The position numbers were made by a program, and so were the translations under genes. The notes beneath the pieces were generated by a model. That model saw only the letters and a program-made list of their open reading frames with translations, did no database searches and had not been told where the DNA came from. Below, piece after piece: positions 4,057 to 64,000 of a stretch of DNA of 64,000 bases. The DNA comes from Thermoplasmata archaeon (lineage in GTDB: Archaea; Thermoplasmatota; E2; DHVEG-1): contig JADBLO010000065.1 of NCBI GenBank assembly GCA_014894395.1, positions 3,840 to 67,839 on the forward strand, in the 5' to 3' direction. How positions within the stretch are numbered: the first letter of the stretch is position 1; the number at the start of each line of letters is the position of its first letter.

Positions 4057-4100
4057 ATTTTTTATTCCAAGTAATGTAACAGAAACCTACGACCTTCCCC

Positions 4101-4118: not shown

Positions 4119-4139
4119 GTGGGAAGGTTATATCGCATC

Positions 4140-43572: not shown

Positions 43573-43662
43573 TAGCTAAAAAGTAAAACAAGAGGCCCAT
43601 AAAAAACCATCGGTTTGTAACCTATAGGTTTTTATAATCAATCTCCATTTTTTTCTTTCAGT

Positions 43663-46072: not shown

Positions 46073-46890
46073 TGGGCACCCGCCAGTTTGCACGCCTCTC
46101 CTTCCGCATGAATAAAACGGCGGTTCCGAAGCATCAAATTATCATAATCCACTTTATGCCCATCGAACTCAGGACCATCAACACAGGCGAACTTTGTCTT
46201 ACCATCGATCGAGACTCGACATCCACCGCACATCCCGGTGCCATCAACCATAATAGGGTTCAAACTCACCAGGGTTTTAATATCGTATTTTTTTGTGAGA
46301 TTGGAGACCACTTTCATCATGATAATCGGACCGATTGCCATAACCATGTTGACATTCTGTGTATCGATTACTTTCTGTAAGACATCGCTGACAAAACCTT
46401 TGTGACCTTTCGATCCATCATCTGTTGCGATATAGAATTCGTCGCTATATGCTTCGATTTCTTTTTCTAAAAGAAGAAGGTCTTTGGTTTTAGCCCCAAG
46501 GATTGAAATTACATTGTTCCCTGATTCTTTCAACGCTTTCACGATCGGATATAAGGGGGCAATACCAACCCCGCCACCGACGCAGACGACCGTACCGTAT
46601 TTCTTAACTTCCGACGGCATGCCAAGGGGTCCTGCGAAATTTTCTAAGGAATCACCAACGTTAAGAGTACCGAGTTGTTTTGTGGTTTTTCCAACCTCAA
46701 GAAAAATAATAGTAATCGTTCCTTTTTTTGGATCAGAATCAGCAATCGTCAAAGGGATACGTTCCCCTCTTTCGTCAATACGAAGAATGATAAATTGACC
46801 GGGTTGTGCTTTCTTTGCAACCAGCGGTGCTTTGATCTTCATGAGTTTCACGGTATCTGATAATACCTTTTTTTCGATGATTTCATACAT
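46069..46890 (-). CDS. nfnA: Nfn small subunit (NfnA/SudB)
   Basis: GERIPLTI, GGGVG, MVDGTGMCGGCRV...FACVDGP. Confidence 0.92.
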   Translation of the reverse strand: MYEIIEKKVLSDTVKLMKIKAPLVAKKAQPGQFIILRIDERGERIPLTIADSDPKKGTITIIFLEVGKTTKQLGTLNVGDSLENFAGPLGMPSEVKKYGTVVCVGGGVGIAPLYPIVKALKESGNNVISILGAKTKDLLLLEKEIEAYSDEFYIATDDGSKGHKGFVSDVLQKVIDTQNVNMVMAIGPIIMMKVVSNLTKKYDIKTLVSLNPIMVDGTGMCGGCRVSIDGKTKFACVDGPEFDGHKVDYDNLMLRNRRFIHAEGEACKLAGAQ

Positions 46891-47286: not shown

Positions 47287-50200
47287 TTAGATGTTCCCTG
47301 GTTTTAAAATTATCGCATGACCTGATCGACCATTTAGTTTCACATGCAGCGGTGCTGAGAGATGCACGTGGTCCACATACTTCATTTTTTTTGTTACACG
47401 CTGTTTCTCCAGCCACTCACAATCAATAAAGCAAGACTCTGAGTGTAATGGAATATCAATGTACCCAATTCCGTGACTGATCATGTTCTGGAAGAAATGT
47501 GTCCCCTGTGATGGTTTGATATTGAAATTTTCAAGGGCGGTCTCTATGATGACTCGTACTCCAGAAATTTGTCCCCAGCGAACTGGAATCCCAAGCCATC
47601 GATCCTGGGTTCCCCACCTCCCAGGTCCCATGAGAAGGTACGGGGATGCAGCTGCCATTAGCGTTTTGTTAATGATGCCAATTTCTTCAGCAATTTCGAC
47701 GGTTTTTGAGGTATCAAAACGATCTGAGGGAACATACACAATATCTTGAATCGTATGAATCAATCCGTTGCCTAATGCTTGATCTGAGCGGATGAAGATT
47801 TGCTTCTTTGCGATTTTGTTATCCCATCCGATATCAAGCTGCTCCGTTGAGACGACAAACGGGCGAATCTGTAGGATAGCAAATGTCGGGGATGTGCGTT
47901 TTTCTGGATCAATATTCACCGCGAATTCAAACTCTACGGGGCACCCCATGCCTTTCTGACCAAGGAGCAAAAGATCTTTGAGCAGGGGTGCGAGAGGGAA
48001 TGCATCATATTTGAGTACTCCTGCAAACGTGATTAACGGTAGCCCTGTCTCGGAAAGACCATCCCGAACAACCCCATCGTTTCGATCATAACTACTCGCT
48101 ACGAAGTCAAGGGAGCCATCGTTCCTGATATCGGTTGTTTGCAGTTTAATTATAGGACTGTCATGTGGTTCAGAAAGATGGAAATCCTTGTTGTGAGTGT
48201 GTAAGACATATAGTTCTCGTTGTGTATGCTCAAGGACCAGTTCCGGTGATGAAAAATCAGGATTTATCTCAGGATACCGTGGACAAAACCGGAAGACCTT
48301 TTCTCCACCAACCACCGCTTTTCCAAGGCCGACCGCGATGTTTACGATTCCCTCCTCTGGAGTCTGATGAGCGATTGGATAGAAATTATAGGATTTCGCG
48401 ACACCAGAAAAAGTAGGGTAAAACCTACCACTAAATTCACTCCCTGCAAGCTCTTGAATGATGACAGCCATTTTTTCTTCTTCGATTTTCAGTGAGAGTG
48501 ATTCCGCGTATGCTTTTGGTTCTCTGTAAAACACAGATGCATATACAAGTTTAATCCCCTGACACAGTTGATTTAACCGATCGTCATCATCTTCATGATT
48601 ATTCGGCAACAAATATGTTGAGTACATGCCAGCAAACGGATGATTCTGATAATCCTCAAGAAGGCTTGATGATCGCACCGCGAGCGGGGTTCGGAAATGT
48701 TGTAAAATCACTTTTAATTTTTGTTTCAACTCACCACAAATATCACATTCAAGGAACGCATGGGCGATGTCGGAATCCGTAAGTTTTTCGTTTTTGAAAA
48801 AACGATGGAGATTATGATCTGAGACAAAGCGATCAAACTCAAGTGTGCCGATGACCACCGTATTTGGTACTTTAATCCTGATGTTTTTATATTTATCTTC
48901 GAGTTTATAATGTGTCAGAAGCGATCGCATGAACGCAAGCCCTCGACCTTTTCCACCCAGCGAATCACCCCGTAATCGTGTAAAGGAGGAGTCAAATTCA
49001 AATGTCTGCTCATCAAAATCGGTAATGATCCCACGTTGCTTACTTTTCCGCGCCTCATTAAAGACCGAAATAAGATATTCCCGTACTGCGTTTAGGTCAG
49101 AAAAATCAGACACTTTTTTCGGACGTAATTCCTTGGCAAGATCAAATTCACAGCGAGCCATCAGCCAGTTTGAGAAATGGTTTCGCTCTGAATGATGCAG
49201 GATCGACTCCAATGGTATTCGTTGGAGTGCTTCTTCAAACTCCCGCATGTTTGATGCCCGGGCGATCTCCGTGGTTTGCACATGCATCCCCTCCGGACCT
49301 GGGTACCCAGCCTTCTTTTTTTGTAATTTTGGATCCTTCGGCAACAAGAACTGGAAATCACCAAACCCAAGACTATTAACTAGGAAATGTTGGAAGTCTT
49401 GCACCAGTGTTGGAGATTTCTTATGTAAAAAATATGCATCTAATACCTCAGCTTTCTCCCGGTTTACAAGATCGGTAGACTGCATCATGATTGGCAGATG
49501 AACCGAATCCTTCCGAATCACCCGCACAAACTCAAAGCCTGCTGTTGGATTAGCAGTACCATCCTTTTTAAATGAGACATCTGAGAGTATCCCAAGAATA
49601 TAATCTTTGTATTTTCTATAATAATATATTGCTTCTTCGAATGTTTCTGCGAGCAGAATTTTCGGTCGTGCCCGTCGACGTAGCTGTCGTTGCATTTCAT
49701 TTAAATCCTCAGAAAGAGATCGCCGTGTCTGCTGTACCACTTCAGTATATAGGATTGGGAGAAACATTGAGTAATGATAGATAGAATCTTCTACCATGAT
49801 CACAACACGAACATTCCCATTGACTGTGTCGTATCGAACATTCATGCTATCCTCTACATACTTGATAATTGCGAGAAAGAGCGTTGGATCTCCAGTCCAA
49901 GCAAAGATTTTATCAACGCCTTCTTTGACATCTTCGCGATCCTGGAACTGGTTGATATCGGCACGATCAGTTGCAAGTAAGACAATCGGCAGATCAGGGT
50001 AAAGTTTCTTGATTTTTTTTCCGAACTCAAATGGGTCCATCCCGATATTTTTTGCCATGGTGATAATCAAGTCATACCGATGTTCCTTAATTTTCTGTAG
50101 CGCATTCTCTCCTGAAAACACACGCGTCACTCGAGGTGGTTGGCTGAGCAGGAGATGCTGATACTGACCGATGACGAGTTCTGCGATTAATCCTTCTTCC

Positions 50201-50355
50201 TCGATTGTAAATGCATCATATAAACTAGAGACAATAAGAATGTCTTTAACTCTGTAGGGCATGAGGGCATGGTAGATTTGAGTACCAAGATCATAGGTTC
50301 CTTCAAAATCATCTTGGATTCGTGAACTCCGAAAACCTGCCTCTTCTACTTTCAT
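47287..50355 (-). CDS. Receiver-like domains fused to PEP-synthase/PPDK N-terminal (ATP-grasp) domain
   Basis: Receiver-like segments (ILIV.S...YDLII; IMVEDS...ILSDV), GGKGRGL, AVRSSSLLED...FAG.Y, MAVIIQ, FSGVA, GLG..VV.G, EFEFA, LQIRP, C-terminal PSQGTHFFQN. Confidence 0.85.
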   Translation of the reverse strand: MKVEEAGFRSSRIQDDFEGTYDLGTQIYHALMPYRVKDILIVSSLYDAFTIEEEGLIAELVIGQYQHLLLSQPPRVTRVFSGENALQKIKEHRYDLIITMAKNIGMDPFEFGKKIKKLYPDLPIVLLATDRADINQFQDREDVKEGVDKIFAWTGDPTLFLAIIKYVEDSMNVRYDTVNGNVRVVIMVEDSIYHYSMFLPILYTEVVQQTRRSLSEDLNEMQRQLRRRARPKILLAETFEEAIYYYRKYKDYILGILSDVSFKKDGTANPTAGFEFVRVIRKDSVHLPIMMQSTDLVNREKAEVLDAYFLHKKSPTLVQDFQHFLVNSLGFGDFQFLLPKDPKLQKKKAGYPGPEGMHVQTTEIARASNMREFEEALQRIPLESILHHSERNHFSNWLMARCEFDLAKELRPKKVSDFSDLNAVREYLISVFNEARKSKQRGIITDFDEQTFEFDSSFTRLRGDSLGGKGRGLAFMRSLLTHYKLEDKYKNIRIKVPNTVVIGTLEFDRFVSDHNLHRFFKNEKLTDSDIAHAFLECDICGELKQKLKVILQHFRTPLAVRSSSLLEDYQNHPFAGMYSTYLLPNNHEDDDDRLNQLCQGIKLVYASVFYREPKAYAESLSLKIEEEKMAVIIQELAGSEFSGRFYPTFSGVAKSYNFYPIAHQTPEEGIVNIAVGLGKAVVGGEKVFRFCPRYPEINPDFSSPELVLEHTQRELYVLHTHNKDFHLSEPHDSPIIKLQTTDIRNDGSLDFVASSYDRNDGVVRDGLSETGLPLITFAGVLKYDAFPLAPLLKDLLLLGQKGMGCPVEFEFAVNIDPEKRTSPTFAILQIRPFVVSTEQLDIGWDNKIAKKQIFIRSDQALGNGLIHTIQDIVYVPSDRFDTSKTVEIAEEIGIINKTLMAAASPYLLMGPGRWGTQDRWLGIPVRWGQISGVRVIIETALENFNIKPSQGTHFFQNMISHGIGYIDIPLHSESCFIDCEWLEKQRVTKKMKYVDHVHLSAPLHVKLNGRSGHAIILKPGNI

Positions 50356-51119: not shown

Positions 51120-51569
51120 TTAAATTAAGAAATAATGCGGACATAATTCCATGGTTTCTATCCACATTCCAACTTCTACTTTTTCAACATATGGCATTTC
51201 TAAAATTGTATCTCTAAGTCTGCAGAGATGAGGAAAATCTTTCACGACACTAATGGCTATTACATCATGACTACCGACTAATTTTGAAGCAACTATAACA
51301 CTTGGTAATTGGATAATTTTTTCAAGAACTTGAGGAGAATACGCAGGTTTTACATTGATCCCAAACCGTGCAATAAAGGAATAACCAATCCTCGATGGAT
51401 CAATAACGACGGTGGAATTAATGATCACTCCTTCTTTTTTTAATCGCTCAAAACGATTACTGATAGTATCAGGAGATATTTTCAATAATCTCGCAATCTC
51501 ACGAAAAGAAGTTCGCGCATCTTTTTTGAGCGCTTCTATAATGGCAATATCAATTTTATCTACATCCAT
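51120..51569 (-). CDS. Lrp/AsnC transcriptional regulator
   Basis: DKIDIAII..LKKDAR.SF.EIA..L.IS..T...R..RL...GVI plus RAM domain. Confidence 0.92.
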   Translation of the reverse strand: MDVDKIDIAIIEALKKDARTSFREIARLLKISPDTISNRFERLKKEGVIINSTVVIDPSRIGYSFIARFGINVKPAYSPQVLEKIIQLPSVIVASKLVGSHDVIAISVVKDFPHLCRLRDTILEMPYVEKVEVGMWIETMELCPHYFLI

Positions 51570-51578
51570 AGTTGGCTC

Positions 51579-52040
51579 CTAATCAAGTTCAAAATTCTTG
51601 GGGCACAAAAGAGGTTTATCGACTAAAATATCAACGTCGACATTTTTTACCTGTTGGAAATCGCCTATTGTACTCTTCGTCATCCCTATTTTTTCGATGT
51701 CGTCTAGTATCGCAATCGCTTCGATATCATAGCGTCCAATTGCTCGTGTCACTACGCACATCCCAGATATTCGTTTTACCATGTTGAGAACCTGACCGGA
51801 ATAAGGATGTGTTACTTGTATCCCAATGAAAACCAAGTGTTTTTTTTCGAGTTGTTTCGGATCAATTACAATGGTTGTACCACGGATGATTCCTTTTTTC
51901 TTCATTGCATTAAAACGATTTTTAATGGTATCTGTAGAAACTCCGCATTGTTTAGCAATCTCTTTAAAGGATTTTCTAGCATCTCCTTGAAGTAGTCTCA
52001 ATATTTGAATATCAATTGTATCAATTTTATTTTCCGACAT
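51579..52040 (-). CDS. Lrp/AsnC transcriptional regulator
   Basis: DTIDIQIL.LLQ.DAR.SF.EIA...GVS..T...R, G.YD. Confidence 0.92.
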   Translation of the reverse strand: MSENKIDTIDIQILRLLQGDARKSFKEIAKQCGVSTDTIKNRFNAMKKKGIIRGTTIVIDPKQLEKKHLVFIGIQVTHPYSGQVLNMVKRISGMCVVTRAIGRYDIEAIAILDDIEKIGMTKSTIGDFQQVKNVDVDILVDKPLLCPKNFELD

Positions 52041-52157
52041 ATGATGATCAATATACGATGGTATTTCAAACATTGTATGAATTTTTTCTATAATATTCTT
52101 TTGTTTGTCAGTTGTACTTCTAAATTTTCAGTATTTTTACTTCATAAATACCTATTT

Positions 52158-52554: not shown

Positions 52555-53043
52555 ATGACTATCAAAATATTTGTCACCGGTGGAACATTTGACAAAGAAT
52601 ACGATGAAATAGAAGGAAAACTCTTTTTCCGTGATACACACCTTCCTGAGATGCTGAAACTCGGCCACTGTCGACTTGACATAGATCTACGAACGTTGAT
52701 GATGATTGATAGCATGAGTATGAACGATCAAGATAGAATCATTATTGTCGAGAATTGTAAAAATGCAGAGGAGGACAAAATAGTCATCACTCATGGGACA
52801 GACACCATGGCTGAAACTGCAAAACAATTAGGCGAAGCAATCAAAGATAAAACCATTGTTCTCACCGGGGCAATGGTTCCCTATCGATTCGGCAGTTCTG
52901 ACGGATTATTCAATCTCGGAAGCGCGCTTGCCTTTGTTCAAACTCTACCACCCGGAGTATACGTTTCTATGAATGGACGATATTTTACCTGGGATAATGT
53001 TATAAAAAATAAACGTCTAGGTGAATTTGAAGAAATACAATGA
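52555..53043 (+). CDS. Asparaginase/glutaminase N-terminal domain-only protein
   Basis: TGGTF, DS, HGTDTM, LTGAM.P, SD..FNL; only 162 aa. Confidence 0.88.
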   Translation: MTIKIFVTGGTFDKEYDEIEGKLFFRDTHLPEMLKLGHCRLDIDLRTLMMIDSMSMNDQDRIIIVENCKNAEEDKIVITHGTDTMAETAKQLGEAIKDKTIVLTGAMVPYRFGSSDGLFNLGSALAFVQTLPPGVYVSMNGRYFTWDNVIKNKRLGEFEEIQ

Positions 53044-53051: not shown

Positions 53052-53576
53052 CTATTTTTTTCTTCGTTGTTTCTTAGTACAAGATTTTTTTTGTTGGATC
53101 AGCCACATCCCCTCAGGTATAAAACCACATGTTTTATAGAAATGAAACGCAGGATTTTTAAACGCGACACCTACTCCAATAAATTCGATACCTTGACTAT
53201 ATAATTCTTTCAGCAAGATCTCGAGAAGTTTACTTCCAGCACCGCTATTTCGATACTCTGGATGGATACAAATCTCATCAACAAATCCTATTCGTTCTAT
53301 TGCATAAATAACTGCTTCGTCGCGTTCCCCCACATGTCCTGTAGCCATACCGATGATCTTCTTTTTATCTTCAGCAACAAAGAAAAATTGATTTGGATCT
53401 TTAAGCAATTCTCGTTGGCGGCTGATGATATATTTTTTACATTTGTTTTTTGGTTTCAGGGTATCAAGTGCTCCACTATAATGGGTATGTTCAAGTGATG
53501 AAATCCAGTATAAATCAAAAAATGCATCAAGGTCTTCCTCGAATCCTTTGCGCAGTACCACCGATTTTTTTTTCAT
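53052..53576 (-). CDS. GNAT acetyltransferase
   Basis: I.PEYRNSGAGSKLL, N.A..FY...GF. Confidence 0.85.
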   Translation of the reverse strand: MKKKSVVLRKGFEEDLDAFFDLYWISSLEHTHYSGALDTLKPKNKCKKYIISRQRELLKDPNQFFFVAEDKKKIIGMATGHVGERDEAVIYAIERIGFVDEICIHPEYRNSGAGSKLLEILLKELYSQGIEFIGVGVAFKNPAFHFYKTCGFIPEGMWLIQQKKSCTKKQRRKK

Positions 53577-53660: not shown

Positions 53661-54998
53661 TTACACGATTCCCTGGTCAAGCATCGCATCAGCGACTTTG
53701 ACAAACCCAGCGATATTCGCTCCTTTAATATAATCGACTTTATCTTTGGAAACTCTTCCGTATTTCACACATGCCTCATGGATGTTTTTCATTATCTGAT
53801 GCAGGTGTTTGTCCACTTCTTCAGCAGTCCAGTTCATACGCATGCTGTTCTGTGACATCTCAAGACCAGAGACTGCAACACCACCAGCGTTGACTGCTTT
53901 CCCCGGAGCATACATCATTTTCTCAGTTGCGAATTTCGCAGCATCATACGTACAGCCCATGTTGGAAACCTCAACAACCAAGATACAACCATTCTTCGCT
54001 AATATTTTCGCATCATTAAGATCTAATTCGTTCTGTGTTGCACAGGGCATTGCAATATCGCATTTCACTTCCCATGGCTTTTTCCCTGCGTAGAATGGGG
54101 CATTGAATTTCTTCGCAAAATCCTCAACACGATCATTATTTGAGGCACGCATTTCAAGCATATATTCGATTTTCTCTCCTTTGATACCATCTATATCATA
54201 GATATATCCATCTGGGCCAGAGAGTGTCACGACTTTACCACCGAGCTCGTTAATCTTTAATGCGCATCCCCAGGCGACATTACCAAAACCAGATACGGTA
54301 ACTATTTTTCCTTTAAAACTGTCGCTTTTCAATTTCAGCATTTCCGATGCAAAATATACAGCACCATAACCGGTTGCCTCTGGTCGAATCAAACTCCCTC
54401 CCCAGTTTACACCCTTTCCAGTCAGAACACCGGTAAACTCGTTGCGTAATTTCTTGTACATTCCAAACAGATATCCAATTTCTCTGCCACCAACACCGAT
54501 ATCACCAGCAGGCACATCAGTGTTTGGCCCTACATGTCGAAACAACTCCATCATAAAGGACTGGCAGAATCGCATGATCTCCATTTCTGATTTTCCTCGA
54601 GCATTGAAATCAGAACCACCTTTCCCACCACCCATGGGCAGTGAAGTAAGACTGTTTTTGAAGATCTGCTCAAAACCAAGGAACTTTAAAATACTTAAAT
54701 TGACACTAGGATGGAATCGCAGACCACCTTTATAGGGTCCAATTGCGCTGTTAAATTCAATACGATACCCGCGGTTTACCTGAACGTCTCCTTTGTCATC
54801 GACCCAAGGAACACGGAATATAATCGCACGTTCAGGTTCAACCATTCGCTCCAGGATCTTTGCTTTTTTATATTTCGGATTTTTTTCGATAAATGGCATG
54901 ACGCTTTCTGTGAACTCTTGAACCGCTTGATGAAATTCTTTTTCACCAGGATTTTTTTCCATGACTTTTTCCATGAACACTTTCACATTTTCATCCAT
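53661..54998 (-). CDS. gdhA: Glutamate dehydrogenase (E. coli GdhA-like subfamily)
   Basis: GPYKGGLRFHPSV, LPMGGGKGG, DVPAGDIG, RPEATGYG, SGFGNV, NAGGVAVS. GGAGG upstream of ATG 54998. Confidence 0.96.
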   Translation of the reverse strand: MDENVKVFMEKVMEKNPGEKEFHQAVQEFTESVMPFIEKNPKYKKAKILERMVEPERAIIFRVPWVDDKGDVQVNRGYRIEFNSAIGPYKGGLRFHPSVNLSILKFLGFEQIFKNSLTSLPMGGGKGGSDFNARGKSEMEIMRFCQSFMMELFRHVGPNTDVPAGDIGVGGREIGYLFGMYKKLRNEFTGVLTGKGVNWGGSLIRPEATGYGAVYFASEMLKLKSDSFKGKIVTVSGFGNVAWGCALKINELGGKVVTLSGPDGYIYDIDGIKGEKIEYMLEMRASNNDRVEDFAKKFNAPFYAGKKPWEVKCDIAMPCATQNELDLNDAKILAKNGCILVVEVSNMGCTYDAAKFATEKMMYAPGKAVNAGGVAVSGLEMSQNSMRMNWTAEEVDKHLHQIMKNIHEACVKYGRVSKDKVDYIKGANIAGFVKVADAMLDQGIV

Positions 54999-55082
54999 AA
55001 AGACAGCCTCCAAATATTCGTGGTCCGTATCGTCCTCCATTATTAAAATCTATGTATTAAAAAGGAAAAAAAGAAGAAGAGG

Positions 55083-55188: not shown

Positions 55189-55653
55189 ATGAGAACCGCA
55201 GATATCGATAGAATTCTCAAAAAACATGATTACAAAAAATCTGCACTAATACCCATTCTCCAGGATATCCAAGCAGGACATCGTTGGCTCCCTATGGAAA
55301 CCCTGAAATATGTTTCTGAAAAACTTGACATTCCACTCATCGATGTCTACAGCCTAGCAACCTTCTATAAATCGTTTAGTCTAAAACCACGGGGAAAACA
55401 TGTGGTAACAGCGTGTTGCGGAACCGCCTGTCATGTCCGAGGTGGTCCAAAAGTTTTACAAGAATTACAAAATGAATTGCATATCGGTGTTGATGAGACT
55501 ACGCCGGATAAAACCTTTACGTTAGAAACGGTCCGATGCCTTGGCGCTTGCGCGCTTGGACCACTTGTTGTCATTGATGGAAAATATCATGGGCAGATGA
55601 ACACAAAAAAAGTCGCTTCAACATTAAAAAAATACGCCAAGAAAAAGAAATAA
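55189..55653 (+). CDS. NuoE/HydC-like [2Fe-2S] subunit
   Basis: LIPILQDIQ, ATFY, C.GTACHVRG, CLGAC..GP. Confidence 0.92.
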   Translation: MRTADIDRILKKHDYKKSALIPILQDIQAGHRWLPMETLKYVSEKLDIPLIDVYSLATFYKSFSLKPRGKHVVTACCGTACHVRGGPKVLQELQNELHIGVDETTPDKTFTLETVRCLGACALGPLVVIDGKYHGQMNTKKVASTLKKYAKKKK

Positions 55654-55700
55654 AAAATCTTCGACAAGCCTTGAAAAATTAACTGGATACGTGATAAAAA

Positions 55701-58700
55701 ATGAAAAAAATACAAACCGCTTCCGACCTCAAAGCTGTCAAAGAAACCATATTAAAAAATACACGAAAAGGGAAAACTATAGTCACACTCTGTGGTGGAA
55801 CCGGTTGTCACGCTTCAGGATGTAACACTGTTATCTCTGCATTTAAACGAGAACTGAAAAAGAATAAACTACAGGATACTGTAGATGTGAAAGTTACAGG
55901 TTGTCATGGGTTCTGTGAAAAAGGGCCAATTGTGGTTCTTCATCCAAAAGGAATTTTCTACAAACAAGTAAAATCCAGGGATGTTAAAGACATCATTGAA
56001 CATACACTTTTAAAAGGAAAAATCGTAGACAGATTACTCTACATTGATCCATTGACTGGAAAGAAAATCACCTATGAAAAAGACGTACAATTTTACAAAG
56101 GGCAAGAGCGCATCGTCTTCGCTGATAATGGGTTACTAGACCCTTATAAAATTGAGGATTACATTGCTATCGGTGGATATACTGCAGCAGTCAAAGCACT
56201 TACCAGTATGTCTCCTGAGAAAATCATTGATGAAATAAAAAAATCAGGATTACGCGGACGAGGCGGAGCAGGGTTTCCTACTGGGCTGAAATGGGAATCA
56301 TGTCGAAACGCTAAAGGTACAACAAAATATATAATATGTAACGCAGACGAAGGTGATCCTGGCGCATATATGGATCGTAGTCTTATTGAAGGAAACCCGT
56401 TTAGTATCCTGGACGGGATGTTGATTGGTGCGTTTGCGATTGGCGCAAACCAGGGGATCGTATACGTCCGAGATGAATATCCTATTGCTGTTCAAACCAT
56501 GAAAAACGCGATTACACAAGCACGACAATGGGGATTACTGGGTAAAGACATTCTCAACTCCGGTTTTGATTTTGATCTATCGATTGTACGAGGCGCAGGC
56601 GCATTTGTCTGTGGGGAAGAAACTGCGCTCATCGCCTCCGTTGAAGGAAAGAAAGGAGAACCACGACAACGACCACCATTCCCTACACAAAAAGGACTCT
56701 GGGGGAAACCTACAAATATCAACAACGTGGAAACCTGGGCAAACATCCCGTATATCATTAACAAAGGATCAAAATGGTACTCTAGTATTGGAACTGAAAA
56801 AAGCAAAGGGACAAAGATATTTTCCCTTGTAGGGAAAATCAACAACACCGGTTTAGTTGAAGTACCGATGGGGATTACGATTAAAGAAATGATTTATGTG
56901 ATTGGCGGTGGTATCCCTGAAGGGAAATCCTTTAAAGCGGTGCAAACCGGTGGTCCGTCTGGCGGTTGTATCCCCAAAGAACTGCTTGAGACGCCGATTG
57001 ATTATGAGAAACTCAAAGAAGCAGGCTCCATCATGGGATCTGGCGGTATGGTGGTGATGGACGAGGACACCTGCATGGTGGATGTCGCTCGATATTTCCT
57101 TGAATTTCTTCAAGATGAATCCTGCGGGAAATGTCTCTCGTGTCGCGAAGGAATAAAACGAATGGCGGAGATCGTCACCGATATTACGAAAGGGCAAGGT
57201 AAAGAAGGAGACATTGAGCTTTTAAAAGAACTCGCTACGACAGTGAAAGATACTTCGATGTGTGGTCTTGGTCAGACCGCTGCGAACCCAGTACTGTCGA
57301 CGATTAAGTTTTTCCATCATGAGTACGAGACCCATATCATGGACCGGAAATGTCCTGCAGGTGTTTGTCGAGACTTGTATATCTCACCATGTCAGAACGC
57401 ATGTCCAGCTGGTATGAACGCTCCTGGATATATTTCATTAATCGGTGAGGGACGTTTTACTGAGGCTCTTGAACTTGCGTTAGATACGAATCCGTTTCCA
57501 TCAGTCTGTGGTCGTATTTGCGACCATCAATGTATGTTTAAATGTCGGCGAAATCAGATTGATGAACCAGTTGCGATCCGATCACTCAAGCGATTCATTG
57601 GAGATTATGAAGAGAATGGCATTGACTATCCTGTGGTAAAACAATCGAATGTCATGATACCTTTTAGAGTTGCGATTGTTGGTGCTGGACCAGCTGGTTT
57701 GAGTTGTGCGTATTTCCTTGCTAGGTTGGGATATAAACCAACGGTCTTTGAAAAACTCCCGGTTGGAGGAGGGATGATGGCGATCGCAATCCCTGAATAT
57801 CGACTGCCGAAAACTGTGTTGCAACGAGAGATCAACAACATTAGGAAACTAGGTGTTGACATTAGACTGAATACACAGGTTGGGAAAGATATTACCATTT
57901 CTCAGTTGTGGTCACAAGGATATCAGGCGTTTTTTGTCGCTGTTGGAATGTATGGTGATAGAAACCTTGGTATCCCTGGGGAGAATCTGGAAAATGTGAT
58001 CCAGGCGGTTGATTTGCTCTCTGATATTAATCTTGACAAACCTGTGGTGTCACCCGCTGGGAAGAAAGTTGTTGTCATCGGGGGTGGGAATTCAGCGGTA
58101 GATGCTGCTCGTACAATGCTTCGCATGGGTGCAAGCGGCGTGACAATCCTGTATCGTCGAACTAGGCGAGAAATGCCAGCGTATAAAGAAGAAGTAGAAT
58201 CAGCAGAACATGAGGGAGTAATAATCAGATTCCTGACCGCTCCTGAGAAAATCTTTGGTGAGAAAGGAAAAGTAAAAAGTATCGAATGTATTAAAATGAA
58301 GCCAGGGGAGTTTGACACCGAAGGACGGCAGAAACCCATGCCGGTGAAAGACAGTAATTTCTTCGTTGATGCTGACATTGTGATTCCCGCGATTGGGGAG
58401 TTCTCTGATGTGTCTGGGTTGTTTACTGGTCTTGATGTGGAGACGAACCGTGATGGGACTATTAAAACTGATAAACACGGAAGAACCAGTATCCCTGGGT
58501 TATTTTCTGGTGGTGATGTGGTCTCTGGTCCTGCAACTGTTATCAACGCGATTGCATCTGGGGAACGCACCGCGGTTACCATTGATCAGTATCTGACGAA
58601 AGATAGAACGAGGAAATATCCCTGGCGGGAGCATAAGAAAGTTGATACGTTTTTTGACCCTGAAGCAGAACCAGTAAGTTACCGAATGCAGAAGCCAAAG

Positions 58701-58862
58701 ACACTCTCGCCTGAGGAACGACGAGGTTGTTTCGACGAAGTTGAGTTATCTTACACTAAAGCGCTTGCGATGAAAGAAGCGAAACGATGTCTCCGCTGTG
58801 ACCTTGAACTTGAGCTGCAAGAAAAAATTCAAAAGGAAAAACCACTGGAGGTGTCGCGATGA
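55701..58862 (+). CDS. NuoF/HydB-like FMN/NADH subunit fused to GltD/NfnB-like FAD/NAD(P)H domain
   Basis: Trx-like 2Fe-2S (CGGTGC..CHGFC), GLRGRGGAGFPTG, NADEGDPGAYMDR, CGEETAL, FKAVQTGGPSGG, SCGKC..CREG, C.LG, H...CPAGVC; then CQNACP, CGRIC...C...C, GAGPAG, GGGNSA.D, YRR, GGD, EAKRCLRC. Confidence 0.9.
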   Translation: MKKIQTASDLKAVKETILKNTRKGKTIVTLCGGTGCHASGCNTVISAFKRELKKNKLQDTVDVKVTGCHGFCEKGPIVVLHPKGIFYKQVKSRDVKDIIEHTLLKGKIVDRLLYIDPLTGKKITYEKDVQFYKGQERIVFADNGLLDPYKIEDYIAIGGYTAAVKALTSMSPEKIIDEIKKSGLRGRGGAGFPTGLKWESCRNAKGTTKYIICNADEGDPGAYMDRSLIEGNPFSILDGMLIGAFAIGANQGIVYVRDEYPIAVQTMKNAITQARQWGLLGKDILNSGFDFDLSIVRGAGAFVCGEETALIASVEGKKGEPRQRPPFPTQKGLWGKPTNINNVETWANIPYIINKGSKWYSSIGTEKSKGTKIFSLVGKINNTGLVEVPMGITIKEMIYVIGGGIPEGKSFKAVQTGGPSGGCIPKELLETPIDYEKLKEAGSIMGSGGMVVMDEDTCMVDVARYFLEFLQDESCGKCLSCREGIKRMAEIVTDITKGQGKEGDIELLKELATTVKDTSMCGLGQTAANPVLSTIKFFHHEYETHIMDRKCPAGVCRDLYISPCQNACPAGMNAPGYISLIGEGRFTEALELALDTNPFPSVCGRICDHQCMFKCRRNQIDEPVAIRSLKRFIGDYEENGIDYPVVKQSNVMIPFRVAIVGAGPAGLSCAYFLARLGYKPTVFEKLPVGGGMMAIAIPEYRLPKTVLQREINNIRKLGVDIRLNTQVGKDITISQLWSQGYQAFFVAVGMYGDRNLGIPGENLENVIQAVDLLSDINLDKPVVSPAGKKVVVIGGGNSAVDAARTMLRMGASGVTILYRRTRREMPAYKEEVESAEHEGVIIRFLTAPEKIFGEKGKVKSIECIKMKPGEFDTEGRQKPMPVKDSNFFVDADIVIPAIGEFSDVSGLFTGLDVETNRDGTIKTDKHGRTSIPGLFSGGDVVSGPATVINAIASGERTAVTIDQYLTKDRTRKYPWREHKKVDTFFDPEAEPVSYRMQKPKTLSPEERRGCFDEVELSYTKALAMKEAKRCLRCDLELELQEKIQKEKPLEVSR

Positions 58863-59560
58863 TCGAGATGACGGTCGATGGGATTCCTGTGCAGGTGGAG
58901 GAAGGATCAACAGTGCTTGATGCTGTACGATTCTATGGAATAGAAATTCCCACGTTATGTCATCATGATGGATTATCTGAATATGGTGCGTGTCGTTTAT
59001 GTGTTGTTGAAATTGGGAAAGGTGAAAACGCGAAACTGGTATCTTCGTGTACCTATCCTGCAGAGCAAGGCTTGTTTGTTCGAACGAACTCTCAGCGGGT
59101 AGTCTCCGCTCGTAAGATGCTTGTTGAGTTGTTAGTAGCGATGTGTCCATCATCAAAAACCGTTCAGGACCTTGCATCTGCAATGGAAGTAACACAAGTG
59201 CGATTTAAAGTGGATCGTATGAATGATTGTATCCTCTGTGGACTCTGCGTGCGGATGTGTGAGGAGCAGATGATGGCAAAAGCAATCGGGTTTGTGAACC
59301 GTGGTAAAAATCGTAAGATCACCACGCCATTTGATCTGAAATCAGATGTCTGTCGAACCTGTGGTGGTTGTCTCTATATATGTCCGGCATGTGAGCTCCG
59401 TTGTCAGGGACCAAATGCAGATACAGATCTGTGTAACGCGTGTTTGAATGTTCAACCGGTGTGTTTAAAGGAAGAGGATGATAAAATGTGCTTCCTTGAA
59501 ACTTGTGGATGGTGTTATGAGGAATTAGGAAGAAAGAAAAAGAAAATGGAGAAAAAATAA
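58859..59560 (+). CDS. Short NuoG/HydA N-terminal-like FeS subunit without catalytic domain
   Basis: IPTLC...GACRLC...C (2Fe-2S), CILCGLCVRMC and CRTCGGCLYICP (2x4Fe-4S), Cys-rich tail; no H-cluster or Mo/W motifs. Confidence 0.88.
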   Translation: MIEMTVDGIPVQVEEGSTVLDAVRFYGIEIPTLCHHDGLSEYGACRLCVVEIGKGENAKLVSSCTYPAEQGLFVRTNSQRVVSARKMLVELLVAMCPSSKTVQDLASAMEVTQVRFKVDRMNDCILCGLCVRMCEEQMMAKAIGFVNRGKNRKITTPFDLKSDVCRTCGGCLYICPACELRCQGPNADTDLCNACLNVQPVCLKEEDDKMCFLETCGWCYEELGRKKKKMEKK

Positions 59561-59580
59561 ATGTTTGGAGGTAAAAGATT

Positions 59581-61161
59581 ATGTCATTAACAAGAGTAAA
59601 TGCATCTGCCGCAACGCTAAGTAAAAACAGAACCGAAGGATCGATTAACACACTCAGTGGGATGTGTGCGACCTGTGTCGATGGGTGCATCGGCATGTGT
59701 GAGATAGGGAAATCAGCCTATCGTGGTCATGAAGTAATCTACCCGCAGCCGTTTGGGATTATCACCTCGGCGTGTGAGAAGATATACCCGGTTGACTTGT
59801 CTCATTTCACGATCCTTGGTGGAGTTGTTGGCGCATGGGGTATTGAAACCAATAGTGATCGCGCGATTTTTTCTAATGTGAACCTGGAACGAACCGTCTG
59901 TAAGGAAAATCCATTAAAGGTGAAGATGCCGATAATCATCCCTGGTCTTGGCTCCACTGCGATTGCGAAAAATAACTGGGAAGGTCTCGCGGTTGGTGCA
60001 GCGATAACGGGTATTCCTTTGACAATTGGTGAGAACGTCTGTGGTATGGACCCTGACGCTGAGTTTGTCAAAGGCAAAGTGAAACATTCACCCGACCTAG
60101 AATGGCGTGTTGGTTTGTATAAGAAATGGCAGCAGAAAGGTTACGGCGCAATTATTGTACAAGCGAACGTCGAGGATACGGGTCTTGGTGTCCATGAGTA
60201 TGCGATTTCAGATCTGGATGTTGATGCCGTTGAACTGAAATGGGGTCAGGGTGCGAAGAACATTGGTGGCGAAGTAAAAATTAAAGAACTCAAGAGGGCA
60301 CAGGAATTGAAGAAACGAGGGTATATTGTTCTCCCAGATCCAACTGATAAGGATATCATTGCTGCGTTTGAAAAAGGAAGTTTCCGGGAGTTCGAACGGC
60401 ATTCACGGGTAGGTATGGTGTCTGAGGCAGGGTTTATGAAACGTGTCAAAGAACTCCGTGACTGTGGTGCGAAACGTGTTTTCCTTAAGACTGGTGCGTA
60501 TCGACCAGTTGCACTTGCACAAGCGGTGAAATATGCGTCGAAAGCAAAAATCGATTTGCTTACGGTTGATGCTGCTGGCGGTGGAACCGGGATGAGCCCC
60601 TGGCGAATGATGAACGAATGGGGTATTCCACCGGTCGAACTTCATTCTATGCTCTACAATTATGTTGATAAGCTTGCGAAGAATGGAGAGTATGTCCCGG
60701 ATATTGCGATTGCTGGTGGTTTTACTTTTGAAGATCAGATACTCAAAGGGCTAGCTCTTGGTGCTCCTTACTTTAAACTCGTTGGAATGGCACGAGGGCC
60801 TCTTGCTGCAGCGATGGTTGGTAAAACCATTGGTAAGAAAATAAACGAGTCAATGGTCCCAGTCTATATCGAACGATTCGGCAATACCCCCGAAGAAATC
60901 TTTGTTACAGCACCAGAGTTAAAAAGAAAATATGGAAAAGACTTTGACAAACTACCAACCGGTGCTATCGGACTTTACACATACATGGAGCGACTGCATC
61001 AAGGGTTACGACAAATCATGGCTGGTTGCCGAAAATTCACTTTGGATTACATTTCTCGAGACGATATCGCAGCCCTTACGAAAGAAGCAGCAGATATCAG
61101 TGGTCTCCCATACATCACTGATGTTGACGAGAAAGAAGTCGCTAAAATACTTAATAGCTAA
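59581..61161 (+). CDS. FMN-binding glutamate synthase family protein (stand-alone GltB FMN domain)
   Basis: N-terminal CATCVDGC.G.CE, GLGS, TIGEN, ELKWGQGAK..GG, LKTG, D.AGGGTG.SP, AGG, K.LALGA, AR. Confidence 0.88.
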   Translation: MSLTRVNASAATLSKNRTEGSINTLSGMCATCVDGCIGMCEIGKSAYRGHEVIYPQPFGIITSACEKIYPVDLSHFTILGGVVGAWGIETNSDRAIFSNVNLERTVCKENPLKVKMPIIIPGLGSTAIAKNNWEGLAVGAAITGIPLTIGENVCGMDPDAEFVKGKVKHSPDLEWRVGLYKKWQQKGYGAIIVQANVEDTGLGVHEYAISDLDVDAVELKWGQGAKNIGGEVKIKELKRAQELKKRGYIVLPDPTDKDIIAAFEKGSFREFERHSRVGMVSEAGFMKRVKELRDCGAKRVFLKTGAYRPVALAQAVKYASKAKIDLLTVDAAGGGTGMSPWRMMNEWGIPPVELHSMLYNYVDKLAKNGEYVPDIAIAGGFTFEDQILKGLALGAPYFKLVGMARGPLAAAMVGKTIGKKINESMVPVYIERFGNTPEEIFVTAPELKRKYGKDFDKLPTGAIGLYTYMERLHQGLRQIMAGCRKFTLDYISRDDIAALTKEAADISGLPYITDVDEKEVAKILNS

Positions 61162-61215: not shown

Positions 61216-62316
61216 TCAGGATTCTCGTGTTGTTTTTAGACCATGACCAGTCAATGGCACAACTACCACTGCATTTTTTCTAATGGGATACTTTTGAAAA
61301 CCTGCGACGGCAACCGCTGACGTTGGTTCAATGTAATATCCTTTTTGTATCGTGGCATGCAACGCGCTGATAATATCTTTTTCTTTTACTGTGATAATAT
61401 CGCCGTTGGTTTCTTTTATCGCATGGAGGATATCTTTTGCTCGTACCGGGTTTGCGATGGCGATGCCTTCAGCGATGGTTTCTTTCCAAGTGAAAGGATT
61501 TTTAATTTGATGGTGCTTCTTCCAAGCCTGTGCCAGTGGTGAACAATTCTCGGCTTGTACTCCAATAATTTTTGGGAGTGTATCGATAATTTTTTCTCGT
61601 TGTAATTCTTTTAATCCGATGTATGTTCCAAGGAGAAGCGTTCCATTACCAACCGGTAAAATAATTGCATCAGGTGCATTCCATCCAAGTTGTTCTACGA
61701 TCTCAAAAATACATGTTTTTGTACCCTGAAAAAAGAACGGGTTCCAGTAGTGACTTGCATAGTATGTAGATTGTGCCGCAAGCCATACTGCCTTTGCGGT
61801 ATCCTCTCTAGTACCTGGAATCTTATGAAGGGCGGCACCGTACTGTTCGATTTGCAGTAGTTTTCCTGCAGAAGTTTTTTCAGGAACATAGATATCACAT
61901 GTAATGTTTGCTTTTGCGCAGTATGCCGCAATCGCAGCACCAGCATTCCCTGAAGAGTCTTCTACGACTTTTTTAACTCCCAACTCTTTTATCTTGCTAA
62001 CTAACACCGATGCACCGCGGTCTTTGTATGATCCACTCGGGAAGAGATGGTCTTGTTTCAATAATACTTTTTTTCCTGAAAACTGTTCTTCAACAAGTGG
62101 AGTGAATCCTTCATCAAACGAGATGATATGTTTATCGTGTTCGATGGGGAGAGCTTCGCGGTATCGCCACATTGTTGGTTTTCTTATTTGTATTTTATCA
62201 ACAGGAAATCGTGCATGAAAATCGAGCGTTAATAATCCACCACATTTACAGTTCCATATCGGTTCGGATGATGGATATTCTTTATGACATGATTGACAGC
62301 GGAGTTTCATATTCAT
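61216..62316 (-). CDS. Threonine synthase-like PLP enzyme
   Basis: C..C...C.CGG, MWRY, EG.TPL, P.GSYKDRG, DSSGNAG, PVGNG, EPTSA, LTGHGLK. Confidence 0.88.
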   Translation of the reverse strand: MNMKLRCQSCHKEYPSSEPIWNCKCGGLLTLDFHARFPVDKIQIRKPTMWRYREALPIEHDKHIISFDEGFTPLVEEQFSGKKVLLKQDHLFPSGSYKDRGASVLVSKIKELGVKKVVEDSSGNAGAAIAAYCAKANITCDIYVPEKTSAGKLLQIEQYGAALHKIPGTREDTAKAVWLAAQSTYYASHYWNPFFFQGTKTCIFEIVEQLGWNAPDAIILPVGNGTLLLGTYIGLKELQREKIIDTLPKIIGVQAENCSPLAQAWKKHHQIKNPFTWKETIAEGIAIANPVRAKDILHAIKETNGDIITVKEKDIISALHATIQKGYYIEPTSAVAVAGFQKYPIRKNAVVVVPLTGHGLKTTRES

Positions 62317-62418: not shown

Positions 62419-64000
62419 TCACATTTTAATGAAAAACAGAAGTATTGTTGCATTTTGTGATTTGATAGCTGAGCTATAGGGGTGCGATGCAGTGACCGTT
62501 ATCATAGTCTTTCCCAATCCAAGGATTAAATCTGAGGTAACAGTTCGTTCTGCACCGGGTGGGATATTTAACACTGTCCCGCTCGTTTTCTGCCCGATGA
62601 ATGCACCACCGGTAAGCGTAATATTCCACTGAACGTGCATAATATCTATTGCACCCGTATTTTTAATCACTGTTTTAATCTTGAAAAGTCCACCTTTCAC
62701 AAGACCAATCTCGAGTTTAGGTGCAATGATAGTGATTACAAAAGGCTCTGACCAACCGCTTTCGATTCCAAGTGTGTTTTTTGCTTTTGCAGTAATTGAA
62801 TAATTACCTTTATCAGACCAGGCGTGCGAGATTGTTACGATAGCTCCTGAAGCACAAGGACCAAACCATTCTTCATGGCTCCCATCGCCCCATTCTATCC
62901 AATAATACAGGTTCGAATTCCCTGGATCTGTTGTTACGAATGTGAAATCCATCTGCCTGCCAATATCTCCTTCCGTTGATCCATTTATCTGTGGTGGAAA
63001 TGGTGCTGACAAAACAGGACTCACAATCAAAGCATAGTCCGCGTCTAAATCTGGTGTTTCCACGTGAGAATCCTGGATAATTTCATCTGCAGATACCTCG
63101 ATAGTCCATGTCCCTGGTTCAGGGTTTTTAATGAAGACACATTCGACCGTGTCCTTTGTATCTGGATTACCACCTGGTTCAGACCAAACACCGTTAAGAA
63201 GACCATTATTTCCCCAATAAATAACCTGCGAAGGGGAAATAACTTTTAACGATAAGTCGTTGATTCGATGTTGTGTTTGTACAGCTGGATTTCCCGCAGG
63301 ATCAGCATAGGTCATGGTCACCTTTAGAGAAGGTAAAGCAGCCTCCACCGCGACCATATGTGTTGATACTTCAAATGGCGTAAGTACATCCGATTCATCA
63401 ATGATATAGAACTTATCTCGTAAATCGTACATGTTTTTAACGGACGGCATACCCCACCCTTGATGCATACGAGTTTTATCACCAGAGGTGCCATTGAATG
63501 GGTATTGATCCGCAGCGTTGATCATCATGGCCTTCGCGGTCGTCATATGGGGGCGATTTTCAAAGACAGTGCCTTCGGGGTCTACCTCGTTTCCAAAGAT
63601 ACCATCAGACCACATCTGATAAAATAAGCCAAAGTGACCAGCGATGATCGGTGTTGCTCCGCTTGTACCCCCAAAGCTCGAGGTGTAGGCGGTGGGACTT
63701 CCAGAGGTAGTGGTAAATATCTCATCGTAGAAGGAGCAGAGATCAGGTTTAATCGTTCCATCAGAAGCAGGTCCAATGCTTGCTCCGTAATTCCATTGAT
63801 CATCATCTTTAATAAGAGTATTATAGTGGTACATACCACCACCAGAGACTATGTTCTTTGCCCAGGCTTGTGGCCGTGACATTTGATCCCCTGCATTGCT
63901 TTGAGATTGGCAATGGAGGATGTCAAAGTCAAAGAGCGCTGTATCTGTATCCGCAGAAATTGTGGTGTACTGTGTCGTCCGATCGCTTCCTACACTTGAG
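62419..64000 (-). CDS. S8 subtilisin-like protease with PKD-like C-terminal domain (5' end outside window)
   Basis: Frame open to the window edge; GP..DG.IKPD, catalytic FGGTSGATP, QGWG, beta-sandwich insert, WGDG PKD. Confidence 0.88.
   Translation of the reverse strand, partial: SSVGSDRTTQYTTISADTDTALFDFDILHCQSQSNAGDQMSRPQAWAKNIVSGGGMYHYNTLIKDDDQWNYGASIGPASDGTIKPDLCSFYDEIFTTTSGSPTAYTSSFGGTSGATPIIAGHFGLFYQMWSDGIFGNEVDPEGTVFENRPHMTTAKAMMINAADQYPFNGTSGDKTRMHQGWGMPSVKNMYDLRDKFYIIDESDVLTPFEVSTHMVAVEAALPSLKVTMTYADPAGNPAVQTQHRINDLSLKVISPSQVIYWGNNGLLNGVWSEPGGNPDTKDTVECVFIKNPEPGTWTIEVSADEIIQDSHVETPDLDADYALIVSPVLSAPFPPQINGSTEGDIGRQMDFTFVTTDPGNSNLYYWIEWGDGSHEEWFGPCASGAIVTISHAWSDKGNYSITAKAKNTLGIESGWSEPFVITIIAPKLEIGLVKGGLFKIKTVIKNTGAIDIMHVQWNITLTGGAFIGQKTSGTVLNIPPGAERTVTSDLILGLGKTMITVTASHPYSSAIKSQNATILLFFIKM

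Follow-up and report, generated by a model that had tools for sequence, protein, structure and literature searches.

A putative Bfu-type flavoprotein complex with a BfuB-GltD fusion and a glutamate-synthase-like FMN subunit, encoded by a Thermoplasmata archaeon

What kind of enzyme is encoded by an operon in which a subunit of the bifurcating NADH dehydrogenase type is joined to a glutamate-synthase-type NAD(P)H module and is followed by a protein with a flavin mononucleotide (FMN) barrel? Such a four-gene operon lies at positions 55189-61161 (+) of the 64,000-nucleotide (nt) stretch of Thermoplasmata archaeon contig JADBLO010000065.1 (contig C47 in our labelling) that was analysed here and is called the window below; the assembly of its source genome measures 2.73 Mb and is 92.7% complete. 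According to the coordinates of the open reading frames (ORFs), the intergenic gaps are 48, -4 and 20 nt. The anatomy of the operon as first described was confirmed, and the finding is real. The four products very probably constitute one soluble four-subunit Bfu (HydABC-like) iron-sulfur flavoprotein complex, as judged from sequence comparisons, whereas the explanation as a whole, comprising the complex, a substrate and a coupling scheme, is tentative and somewhat short of likely. The features of the operon are the following (aa, amino acids; E, expectation value).

55189-55653 (+): BfuC, NuoE/HydC-like, with a thioredoxin-like [2Fe-2S] domain, 154 aa; PF01257 at E = 9.9e-51, best solved chains HydC/NfnC
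55701-58862 (+): BfuB::GltD fusion, 1053 aa; from the Pfam and NCBIfam domain order and matches to solved chains
55755-56003 (+): N-terminal thioredoxin-like [2Fe-2S] domain of BfuB, residues 19-101; PF01257 at E = 5.7e-10; Cys31, 36, 41, 68 and 72, taken from the translation and the alignment with relatives
56142-57338 (+): NuoF core of BfuB (NADH/FMN site, SLBB, [4Fe-4S] region), residues 148-546; TIGR01959 at E = 3.4e-150, PF01512, PF10531, PF10589
57333-57368 (+): His545...Cys551-x4-Cys556 motif of BfuB; aligned with 7q4v_B, 8a6t_B, 8oh5_B and 9bov_B
57381-58802 (+): NfnA/GltD-type module of BfuB, residues 561-1034; PF14691, PF07992, PRK12771 (514-1034), PRK12814 (561-1034)
58859-59560 (+): short wire-type BfuA, 233 aa; PF13510 and Fer4 di-cluster families; overlaps the BfuB gene by 4 nt
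59390-59515 (+): Cys-rich tail of BfuA (Cys178, 182, 192, 195, 202, 211, 216 and 219)
59581-61161 (+): FMN subunit, 526 aa, predicted divergent glutamate-synthase-type TIM (triosephosphate isomerase) barrel and putative catalytic subunit; PF01645, AlphaFold2 model
59665-59700 (+): C29-x2-C32-x3-C36-x3-C40 motif at the N-terminus of the FMN subunit; at least 90% kept in a 26-sequence alignment

The best solved chains for BfuC are the C subunits of bifurcating enzymes (8a6t_C, E = 8.2e-41; also 7p5h_C, 7t2r_C, 9bov_C and 9mqx_C). In BfuB, the Pfam families follow one another in the order PF01257 (residues 19-101), PF01512 (179-350), SLBB (374-422), PF10589 (461-545), PF14691 (555-638) and PF07992 (655-954). 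Residues 28-559 match the solved bifurcating B chains at E from 6.5e-228 (7t2r_B) to 3e-186, with 7q4v_B, 9mqx_B, 8a6t_B, 9bov_B, 9n5u_B, 8oh5_B and 7p5h_B as further matches, whereas the non-bifurcating FdsB/Nqo1 chains are much weaker (6vw7_B, 2.5e-118; 2fug_1, 6.8e-114). A preliminary description of this DNA had ascribed HydB/BfuB features to the 1053-aa subunit, and all of them, namely the thioredoxin-like domain and the motifs ADEGDPGAYM, FKAVQTGGPSGG and H...CPAGVC, were found in the translation. The H-x5-C-x4-C motif is identical to that of the solved bifurcating HydB, StnB and NfnB chains; within the stretch EYETHIMDRKCPAGVC, the His and Cys positions agree letter for letter with these chains (search with residues 440-640), and the alignment shows the motif to be retained in fused and unfused relatives alike. 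In solved enzymes, this position after the NuoF core is a 2Fe-2S or zinc site, as described in the consulted part of PMC12018979. By these matches, BfuC and the first 560 residues of BfuB are an NADH/FMN core of the bifurcating type.

The similarity of BfuB to HydB, StnB and NfnB ends at about residue 560, and similarity to NfnA and StnC, from their residues 102-104 onward, starts at residue 561 or 562. Over residues 562-1034, BfuB aligns with residues 102-567 of 9bov_A (E = 6.6e-115), and the NfnA/StnC chains are the closest to this GltD-like module (after 9bov_A, 9n5u_A at 3.4e-111 and 8oh5_C at 1.4e-99), with free NfnB (4ylf_B, 3.3e-99) ranking behind them. The module contains two [4Fe-4S] motifs (Fer4_20), flavin adenine dinucleotide (FAD) and NAD(P)H domains and a C-terminal Cys pair. 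In the NCBIfam model PRK12814, the N-terminus is matched by BfuA and the next part by BfuB. As the preliminary description had stated, a GltD/NfnB-like module stands where HydB has its ferredoxin domain; from PF14691, PF07992 and the junction at 561, the ferredoxin-like C-terminal domain of HydB is judged to be replaced in BfuB by an NfnA/GltD-type 2x[4Fe-4S]-FAD-NAD(P)H module. The named close relatives of the 1053-aa BfuB come from Thermoplasmata or Thermoplasmatota archaea. In the databases the large subunit is called 'NADH-quinone oxidoreductase subunit NuoF', a name that can mislead metabolic reconstructions of these uncultured lineages.

By its Pfam matches, BfuA carries one 2Fe-2S domain and one di-cluster ferredoxin domain, and no hydrogenase domain is among these matches. 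The cluster ligands are Cys34, 45, 48 and 64 for [2Fe-2S] and two CxxCxxCxxxC motifs at Cys124-134 and Cys165-175. The best solved match is the 247-aa WorA (9mqx_A), with which residues 2-185 align end to end (E = 9e-35), and opposite the His/Cys cluster motif of HydA1 (8a6t_A) BfuA has a gap, so that the His-ligated A3 cluster is absent. The WorA alignment and this gap agree with the earlier view of the alpha-like subunit as an iron-sulfur wire with an extra Cys-rich tail and without a His-ligated motif. In an alignment of 76 sequences (from the window and 75 loci of the survey below), all cysteines of the [2Fe-2S] and CxxCxxCxxxC motifs and the eight cysteines of the tail are invariant without exception. 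The other short BfuA of the genome (208 aa, contig C45) has neither the Cys tail nor an adjoining FMN gene. From this pattern, we infer that the tail provides extra metal sites that reach the FMN subunit.

The relatives of the FMN subunit are 73-92% identical among the matches listed, and 67-97% identical across phyla when the genome scan is included; those named belong to Thermoplasmatota, Theionarchaea, WOR-3, Aminicenantes, Acidobacteriota, Omnitrophica, Bacteroidota and others. An exhaustive HMMER search gave only 1083 representatives at E <= 0.001, of which 171 were at <= 1e-30, and by sequence the family is compact and set apart from ordinary glutamate synthases. When one genome per species was scanned, relatives of the FMN gene were confirmed in at least 583 species genomes; the locus counts given here and below are from the best 80 of these at least 583 loci, which are spread over many phyla. 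The short BfuA gene lies directly upstream of the FMN gene in 78 of the 80 loci, the other two having less than 300 nt of upstream DNA, and all 75 loci in which the DNA before these genes reaches far enough have BfuB there as well. These counts strongly favour the earlier proposal that the downstream FMN enzyme is the third partner: it is almost certainly the partner of BfuABC, and the linkage of the FMN, BfuA and BfuB genes, the gaps between the genes and the invariant tail cysteines together argue for one complex. A complex prediction for BfuA with the FMN subunit, made from alignments of both, reached a score of 0.11 (mark, 0.32), which speaks neither for nor against their association. Within a sample of the phylum, 23 of the 201 genomes have a relative of the FMN gene, and a subgroup of homologues at 46-50% identity stands alone, without Bfu genes, in small near-complete genomes of the phylum. 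A sediment metatranscriptome holds 10% of the sampled operon words, in short contigs of 90-99% identity that are probably from relatives; this is weak support and does not amount to a transcript.

The C-terminal part of BfuB differs among these loci. The GltD module was found in 46 of the 75 (44 whole fusions and two with the NuoF part cut by a contig end), and in the other 29 the alignment places an ordinary 2x[4Fe-4S] ferredoxin domain, encoded in about 190-260 nt, at the same junction. In a maximum-likelihood tree built from 68 rows of the NuoF half of BfuB, the fused and the unfused forms do not separate but are mixed, with 17 parsimony changes, and the well-supported branches force at least 10 of such changes. 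Because the two forms are intermixed on the tree, the C-terminal modules have been swapped many times at one junction. This alternation of a ferredoxin domain and an NADPH module offers a direct handle on the disputed low-potential exit of the Bfu enzymes.

Some side observations concern the composition of the cassette. At the Desulfatiglandales locus L048, a second, divergent FMN gene (1000-2586 (-), 50% identical) is encoded on the other strand at a distance of 5 kb. In many bacterial cassettes, the NuoE domain and BfuB are separated by some 140 additional residues, either as a separate small ORF or as a C-terminal extension of BfuC; this insert has four CxxC pairs and looks zinc-ribbon-like (L014, about 3570-3960; L049, about 3600-4020; L057, about 3680-4120), and the operon of the window has none. 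Directly upstream of BfuC, 13 of the 80 loci have an ORF of about 114 aa that is Cys-rich and without a Pfam family (for example, L049, 2643-2987). Genes for a sigma-54 response regulator and a histidine kinase usually stand before it.

PF01645 is the sole Pfam match of the FMN subunit (E = 3.1e-15; 56.7 bits, cut-off 20.4), and it covers residues 280-400 alone. No NCBIfam model matched, no solved structure was hit by the sequence at E <= 0.01, and a search of the ESM Atlas returned nothing beyond clusters of its own kind. In the AlphaFold2 model (mean predicted local distance difference test score 85.2, predicted template modelling score 0.87, first 31 residues of low confidence) the fold is that of an FMN-dependent TIM barrel. 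Foldseek gave E of about 1e-9 alike for lactate/glycolate oxidases, type-2 isopentenyl diphosphate (IPP) isomerase and glutamate synthase, and a structure aligner gave Z = 25.8 for IPP isomerase, 25.1-25.7 for 2-hydroxyacid enzymes and about 22 for inosine monophosphate dehydrogenase and guanosine monophosphate reductase. Because several families of FMN barrels score alike or higher, the fold alone names no substrate. In an hhalign alignment with the canonical 1515-aa GltB, the stretch GGGTGMSP of the FMN subunit stands opposite GGTGASP of GltB, which corresponds to the phosphate-binding stretch GGxTGxSP, and at the sequence level the FMN subunit is a remote relative of the glutamate synthase flavin domain. 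The N-terminal Cys29, 32, 36 and 40 are kept in an alignment that includes relatives of only 32-52% identity; this four-Cys motif is a putative [4Fe-4S] entry site, and with the BfuA tail it would continue the electron path.

To what extent has this architecture been described before? The consulted text of PMC9304861 defines BfuB by InterPro domains that include a C-terminal ferredoxin-type domain (IPR017896; B3/B4, the ferredoxin site). The operon has the other traits of the class given there: a NuoE-like BfuC, a BfuB with NuoF, SLBB and [4Fe-4S] parts together with an N-terminal [2Fe-2S] domain and the His/Cys site, and a BfuA with 2Fe-2S and 4Fe-4S clusters. It also has the layout called Type 2, namely a short BfuA without the A3 cluster and a separate gene for a candidate catalytic subunit. 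The same layout is found in WorABCSL, the tungsten aldehyde oxidoreductase of Acetomicrobium mobile (9mqx), whose short BfuA, as described in PMC12318220, lacks the A3 cluster and has at its end a Cys-bound zinc finger and an adaptor by which the catalytic module is recruited. WorA has four zinc-finger cysteines and an adaptor helix, whereas the BfuA tail here has eight invariant cysteines; the partner of WorABCSL is a tungstopterin enzyme instead of an FMN barrel, and the ferredoxin domain is retained in WorB. In Pfam, none of the four products encoded here matched the WorS/WorL tungstopterin aldehyde oxidoreductase families.

The replacement within BfuB has also been reported. PMC11406978 (mSystems 2024) describes, in the part drawn on here, a 'sub-type I BfuB' in which B3/B4 is replaced by DPD_II and an FAD/NAD(P) domain, from group A3 [FeFe]-hydrogenase clusters of Hydrogenedentota and several other phyla. 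The replacement is the same as here and likewise uncharacterised biochemically, but those clusters have a BfuA with an H-cluster hydrogenase domain, whereas the present operon lies outside any [FeFe]-hydrogenase cluster and has a 233-aa wire and a separate FMN protein. In the same phylum, the Thermoplasmatota hybrid [FeFe]/[NiFe] hydrogenase has a HydB with a glutamate synthase domain beside a NuoG-like conduit (PMC11216029, Cell 2024, in the text available to us). Its HydBCD resembles our operon in HydC, in a HydB with a glutamate-synthase-type domain and in the NuoG-like conduit, but the hybrid operons contain a HydA-HyhS fusion and HyhL, and the window operon has neither of these and an FMN protein instead.

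NfnABC and StnABC (9bov, 9n5u, 8oh5) share the BfuBC core and a GltD/NfnL-like NADPH module with the present complex. In those enzymes, according to the text of PMC9304861 and PMC12018979 used here, the NADPH module follows the 2Fe-2S domain of BfuA, and BfuB retains a ferredoxin-binding domain; here the module is on BfuB, the ferredoxin-like domain of BfuB is absent, and there is a fourth, FMN subunit. The matches to 9bov_A, 9n5u_A and 8oh5_C and the text of PMC9304861 are in accord with the preliminary description, which had placed the NADP module of the Stn/NfnABC enzymes on the NuoG-like subunit. NADPH-glutamate synthase (GltB/GltD; 6s6s, 1ofd, 7mfm) combines, as here, a GltD-type FAD/2x[4Fe-4S] module with a PF01645 FMN barrel, but here the glutaminase (PF00310), central and GXGXG (PF01493) domains are missing, a four-Cys N-terminal motif takes the place of the usual Cys motif, and a whole NuoEF/NuoG-like chain stands between the GltD module and the FMN barrel.

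In short, the preliminary description spoke of an uncharacterised architecture, and this was right in that no such fusion has been characterised biochemically, but the BfuB fusion (PMC11406978, PMC11216029) and, in WorABCSL, the wire-type BfuA are each already in print, in the portions of these articles covered here. The conserved combination of fused or unfused Bfu proteins with a glutamate-synthase-like FMN subunit appears to be undescribed in the literature searched, in which no account of the four-gene cassette with the FMN subunit was found. The functions assigned to Bfu enzymes in the 2022 classification are hydrogenase, Fdh, Nfn, F420, Wor, Bam, Por, Codh, Mbh, Nuo and Rub, with 17 clades unassigned (PMC9304861), and the main text of that article makes no use of the words GltD, fusion or glutamate synthase, its supplement not being covered. 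The cassette would add to the Bfu enzymes a new third-substrate module, a glutamate-synthase-type FMN barrel, that is not in that main text.

What, then, might the complex do? The FMN subunit would be the catalytic module for a third substrate, reached through the BfuA wire and its tail, and would reduce 2-oxoglutarate and ammonia (as 2-iminoglutarate) to glutamate, or perform the reverse reaction, without a glutaminase. NADH would be oxidised at the BfuB flavin; one branch of electrons would run downhill through BfuA to the FMN subunit, and the other would pass through the C-terminal module of BfuB to an acceptor of lower potential, NADP+ for the fused BfuB here and ferredoxin where BfuB is unfused. 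NADPH (or reduced ferredoxin) would then be made from NADH at the expense of the exergonic reduction at the FMN subunit. This classical scheme of NADH bifurcation fits the swap of ferredoxin and GltD modules. The coupling of NADH, NADPH and a third partner that the preliminary description had suggested is plausible; 2-oxoglutarate with ammonia, or glutamate, is the best candidate for the substrate, though a tentative one, and the energetic coupling scheme driven from NADH is doubtful. That all of this holds at once, namely that the enzyme forms glutamate by splitting NADH, reducing 2-iminoglutarate and pushing ferredoxin or NADP+ uphill, is unlikely on present evidence.

Among the energy-coupling enzymes of anaerobes, the Bfu family forms a major class that is still poorly understood, and the cassette is common in many bacterial and archaeal phyla of sediments and digesters. 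If the proposal were true, ammonia assimilation, or glutamate oxidation in the reverse direction, would be directly tied to energy conservation in hundreds of anaerobic lineages, and the repeated module swap could be read as a natural experiment on the choice of a low-potential partner by Bfu enzymes. The neighbours of the cassette point to glutamate and nitrogen metabolism, a field in which electron bifurcation is not described in the literature searched. In the window, such a neighbour is the following gene.

53661-55040 (-): glutamate dehydrogenase (context), divergent, 148 nt upstream of the operon; PF00208, PF02812

A glutamate dehydrogenase gene adjoins the cassette in 14 of the 80 loci (nine fused, four unfused and one of undetermined type), usually on the same strand and at 3-350 nt; glutamine synthetase adjoins it in six and a sigma-54 activator (response regulator) in 12. 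A stand-alone FMN homologue (46% identity) adjoins genes for aconitase, isocitrate dehydrogenase and a citrate-synthase-like protein, which make up a route to 2-oxoglutarate. The source genome encodes two glutamine synthetases, and neither the glutaminase (PF00310) nor the GXGXG (PF01493) family had a match in this 92.7%-complete genome (controls, 13/14 and 14/14). In one family, the FMN homologue is present in seven of 23 genomes and GXGXG in 14 of 23, with both in two, which hints at complementarity of the two. GXGXG has a match in seven of 40 carrier genomes. The background is 104 of 201 genomes of the phylum sample with a match (97 without) and, for the own family of the organism, one of 21 with a match (20 without). 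A replacement of the canonical glutamate synthase by the cassette was considered and rejected as evidence, the GXGXG background being low, the genomes kin and the numbers small.

Several observations weigh against a glutamate-forming, bifurcating enzyme. All evidence on the substrate is indirect. No glutamate dehydrogenase neighbour is present in 66 of the 80 loci, the organism already has a glutamate dehydrogenase for the same net reaction, and the absence of GXGXG is not specific to carriers, because the domain is also missing from many genomes in the background of the phylum and family. The FMN subunit itself has neither PF00310 nor PF01493 among its Pfam matches. Its hhalign link to GltB is remote (probability 52.7%, E = 1.4e-4), the profile of its family finds designed TIM barrels in the PDB and GltS chains at E = 0.22 only, and glutamate synthase 6s6s_A, which gives the longest structural alignment (341 residues), has the lower Z of 20.9. 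The Cys motif of glutamate synthase binds a 3Fe-4S cluster; in hhalign, the stretch of the FMN subunit opposite the Cys-bearing stretch of GltB has no cysteine, and the motif is absent. With regard to the coupling, the C-terminal ferredoxin domain that belongs to the definition of BfuB in PMC9304861 is not present, its place being taken by the GltD-type module with two [4Fe-4S] motifs of its own in a PF14691 fold. Furthermore, in the Bfu enzymes characterised so far, as the consulted parts of PMC9304861 and PMC12318220 present them, the third substrate is a mid-potential donor, with NAD+ and ferredoxin as acceptors.

The main rival is the same complex without energetic coupling, in which the NuoF site and the GltD module would be alternative entries for NADH and NADPH, both feeding the FMN subunit, much as in a glutamate synthase or a dihydropyrimidine dehydrogenase, but over a longer wire. 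FMN barrels are the usual electron acceptors of GltD-like modules, to which the BfuB module belongs; BfuB lacks the ferredoxin domain by which the low-potential exit of Bfu enzymes is defined; and the reduction of 2-oxoglutarate by NAD(P)H requires no extra driving force, as the energetics of glutamate dehydrogenase make clear. However, the bifurcating traits of BfuB (the thioredoxin-like domain, the His/Cys motif and the higher scores with bifurcating chains) are strongly conserved, and the ferredoxin domain in 29 of the 75 cassettes suggests that a second, separate redox partner matters. An uncoupled enzyme is, on balance, somewhat improbable.

The proposal that the FMN subunit forms or oxidises glutamate also has to be weighed against other substrates, such as another 2-oxo or 2-hydroxy acid, an imine or an enoate. 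The scores of the fold, which are equal or better for 2-hydroxyacid oxidases/dehydrogenases and IPP isomerase than for glutamate synthase, would be accommodated by this, as would the loss of all the glutamate synthase accessory domains and the many loci without a glutamate dehydrogenase neighbour. It is nevertheless an unlikely reading: PF01645 is the only sequence family recognised and lies above the curated cut-off, enzymes and regulators of glutamate and glutamine metabolism recur nearby, and the stand-alone homologue is located beside enzymes that form 2-oxoglutarate.

A third possibility, a domain-permuted transhydrogenase of the NfnABC/Stn type acting on NADPH, NAD+ and ferredoxin, to which the FMN gene would be a mere neighbour or accessory, is very unlikely. 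It is favoured by the GltD module being nearest to NfnA/StnC and by BfuA and BfuB matching successive parts of PRK12814. The C-terminal ferredoxin-like domain of NfnB, which PMC12018979 describes, in the text at hand, as the place of ferredoxin binding, is exactly the part that is replaced here, and the cassettes without the NADPH module keep the FMN gene. Moreover, a conventional pair of the NfnAB/SudAB type is already encoded in the window at 44690-46890 (-), by a 467-aa GltD/NfnB-like protein with a full Fer4_20 and a 273-aa PyrK-like protein, which gives the genome a separate NADPH/ferredoxin module at a distance of 9 kb from the operon. Finally, that the operon encodes a HydBCD-type electron module for a hydrogenase encoded elsewhere, as in the Thermoplasmatota hybrid enzyme with its glutamate-synthase-domain HydB and, in the text of PMC11216029, its four-cluster conduit, and with [NiFe] hydrogenase genes present on other contigs of the source genome, is extremely improbable, because no hydrogenase gene is in or beside the operon, [FeFe] hydrogenase (PF02906) has no match in the 92.7%-complete genome, and the conserved fourth gene encodes an FMN protein in all 75 informative loci.

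The source genome has two further Bfu-like loci, on contigs C39 and C45. The locus on C45 (L002, 38000-54000) is an orphan BfuCBA set, consisting of a 268-aa BfuC with an N-terminal extension, a canonical 633-aa BfuB and the 208-aa BfuA; no obvious gene for a catalytic partner was found nearby, and its BfuB clusters with the unfused, FMN-associated BfuBs of L010 and L023 (support 100). On C39 (L001, 18000-36000), a large cluster of the Hdr/Mvh type with HdrC-, HdrB- and HdrA-like genes includes a canonical 644-aa BfuB, a NuoE domain fused behind an FAD-binding stretch, a 1081-aa protein in which a BfuA N-terminus is joined to FAD and ferredoxin domains, and, besides these, MvhD, an FrhB-like protein and a further HdrA-like protein of 1016 aa, and a [NiFe] hydrogenase lies just upstream.

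Near the operon in the window, there are two regulators of the Lrp/AsnC type, a 162-aa protein with the N-terminal domain of asparaginase only, a GNAT acetyltransferase and a pyridoxal-phosphate enzyme of the threonine/cysteine synthase fold. Together these give an amino-acid-metabolism neighbourhood around the operon, and their ORFs are at the following positions.

51120-52073 (-): ORF of this neighbourhood
52555-53043 (+): ORF of this neighbourhood
53052-53576 (-): ORF of this neighbourhood
61216-62316 (-): ORF of this neighbourhood

At 47287-50355 (-), a 1022-aa protein combines a weak response-regulator-like N-terminal region with a PPDK_N domain (the ATP-binding domain of pyruvate phosphate dikinase) and is possibly regulatory; proteins of about 920 aa with PPDK_N adjoin the cassette in nine of the 80 loci (eight fused and one unfused). 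Two divergent genes for UbiA-family prenyltransferases (334 and 337 aa) are located at 42568-44676, beside CTP (cytidine triphosphate) synthase. A 655-aa PQQ-like beta-propeller protein, probably secreted, is encoded at 38235-40202 (+), and a subtilase-like protein, probably also secreted, is encoded at 62419-63999 (-) and runs off the end of the window.

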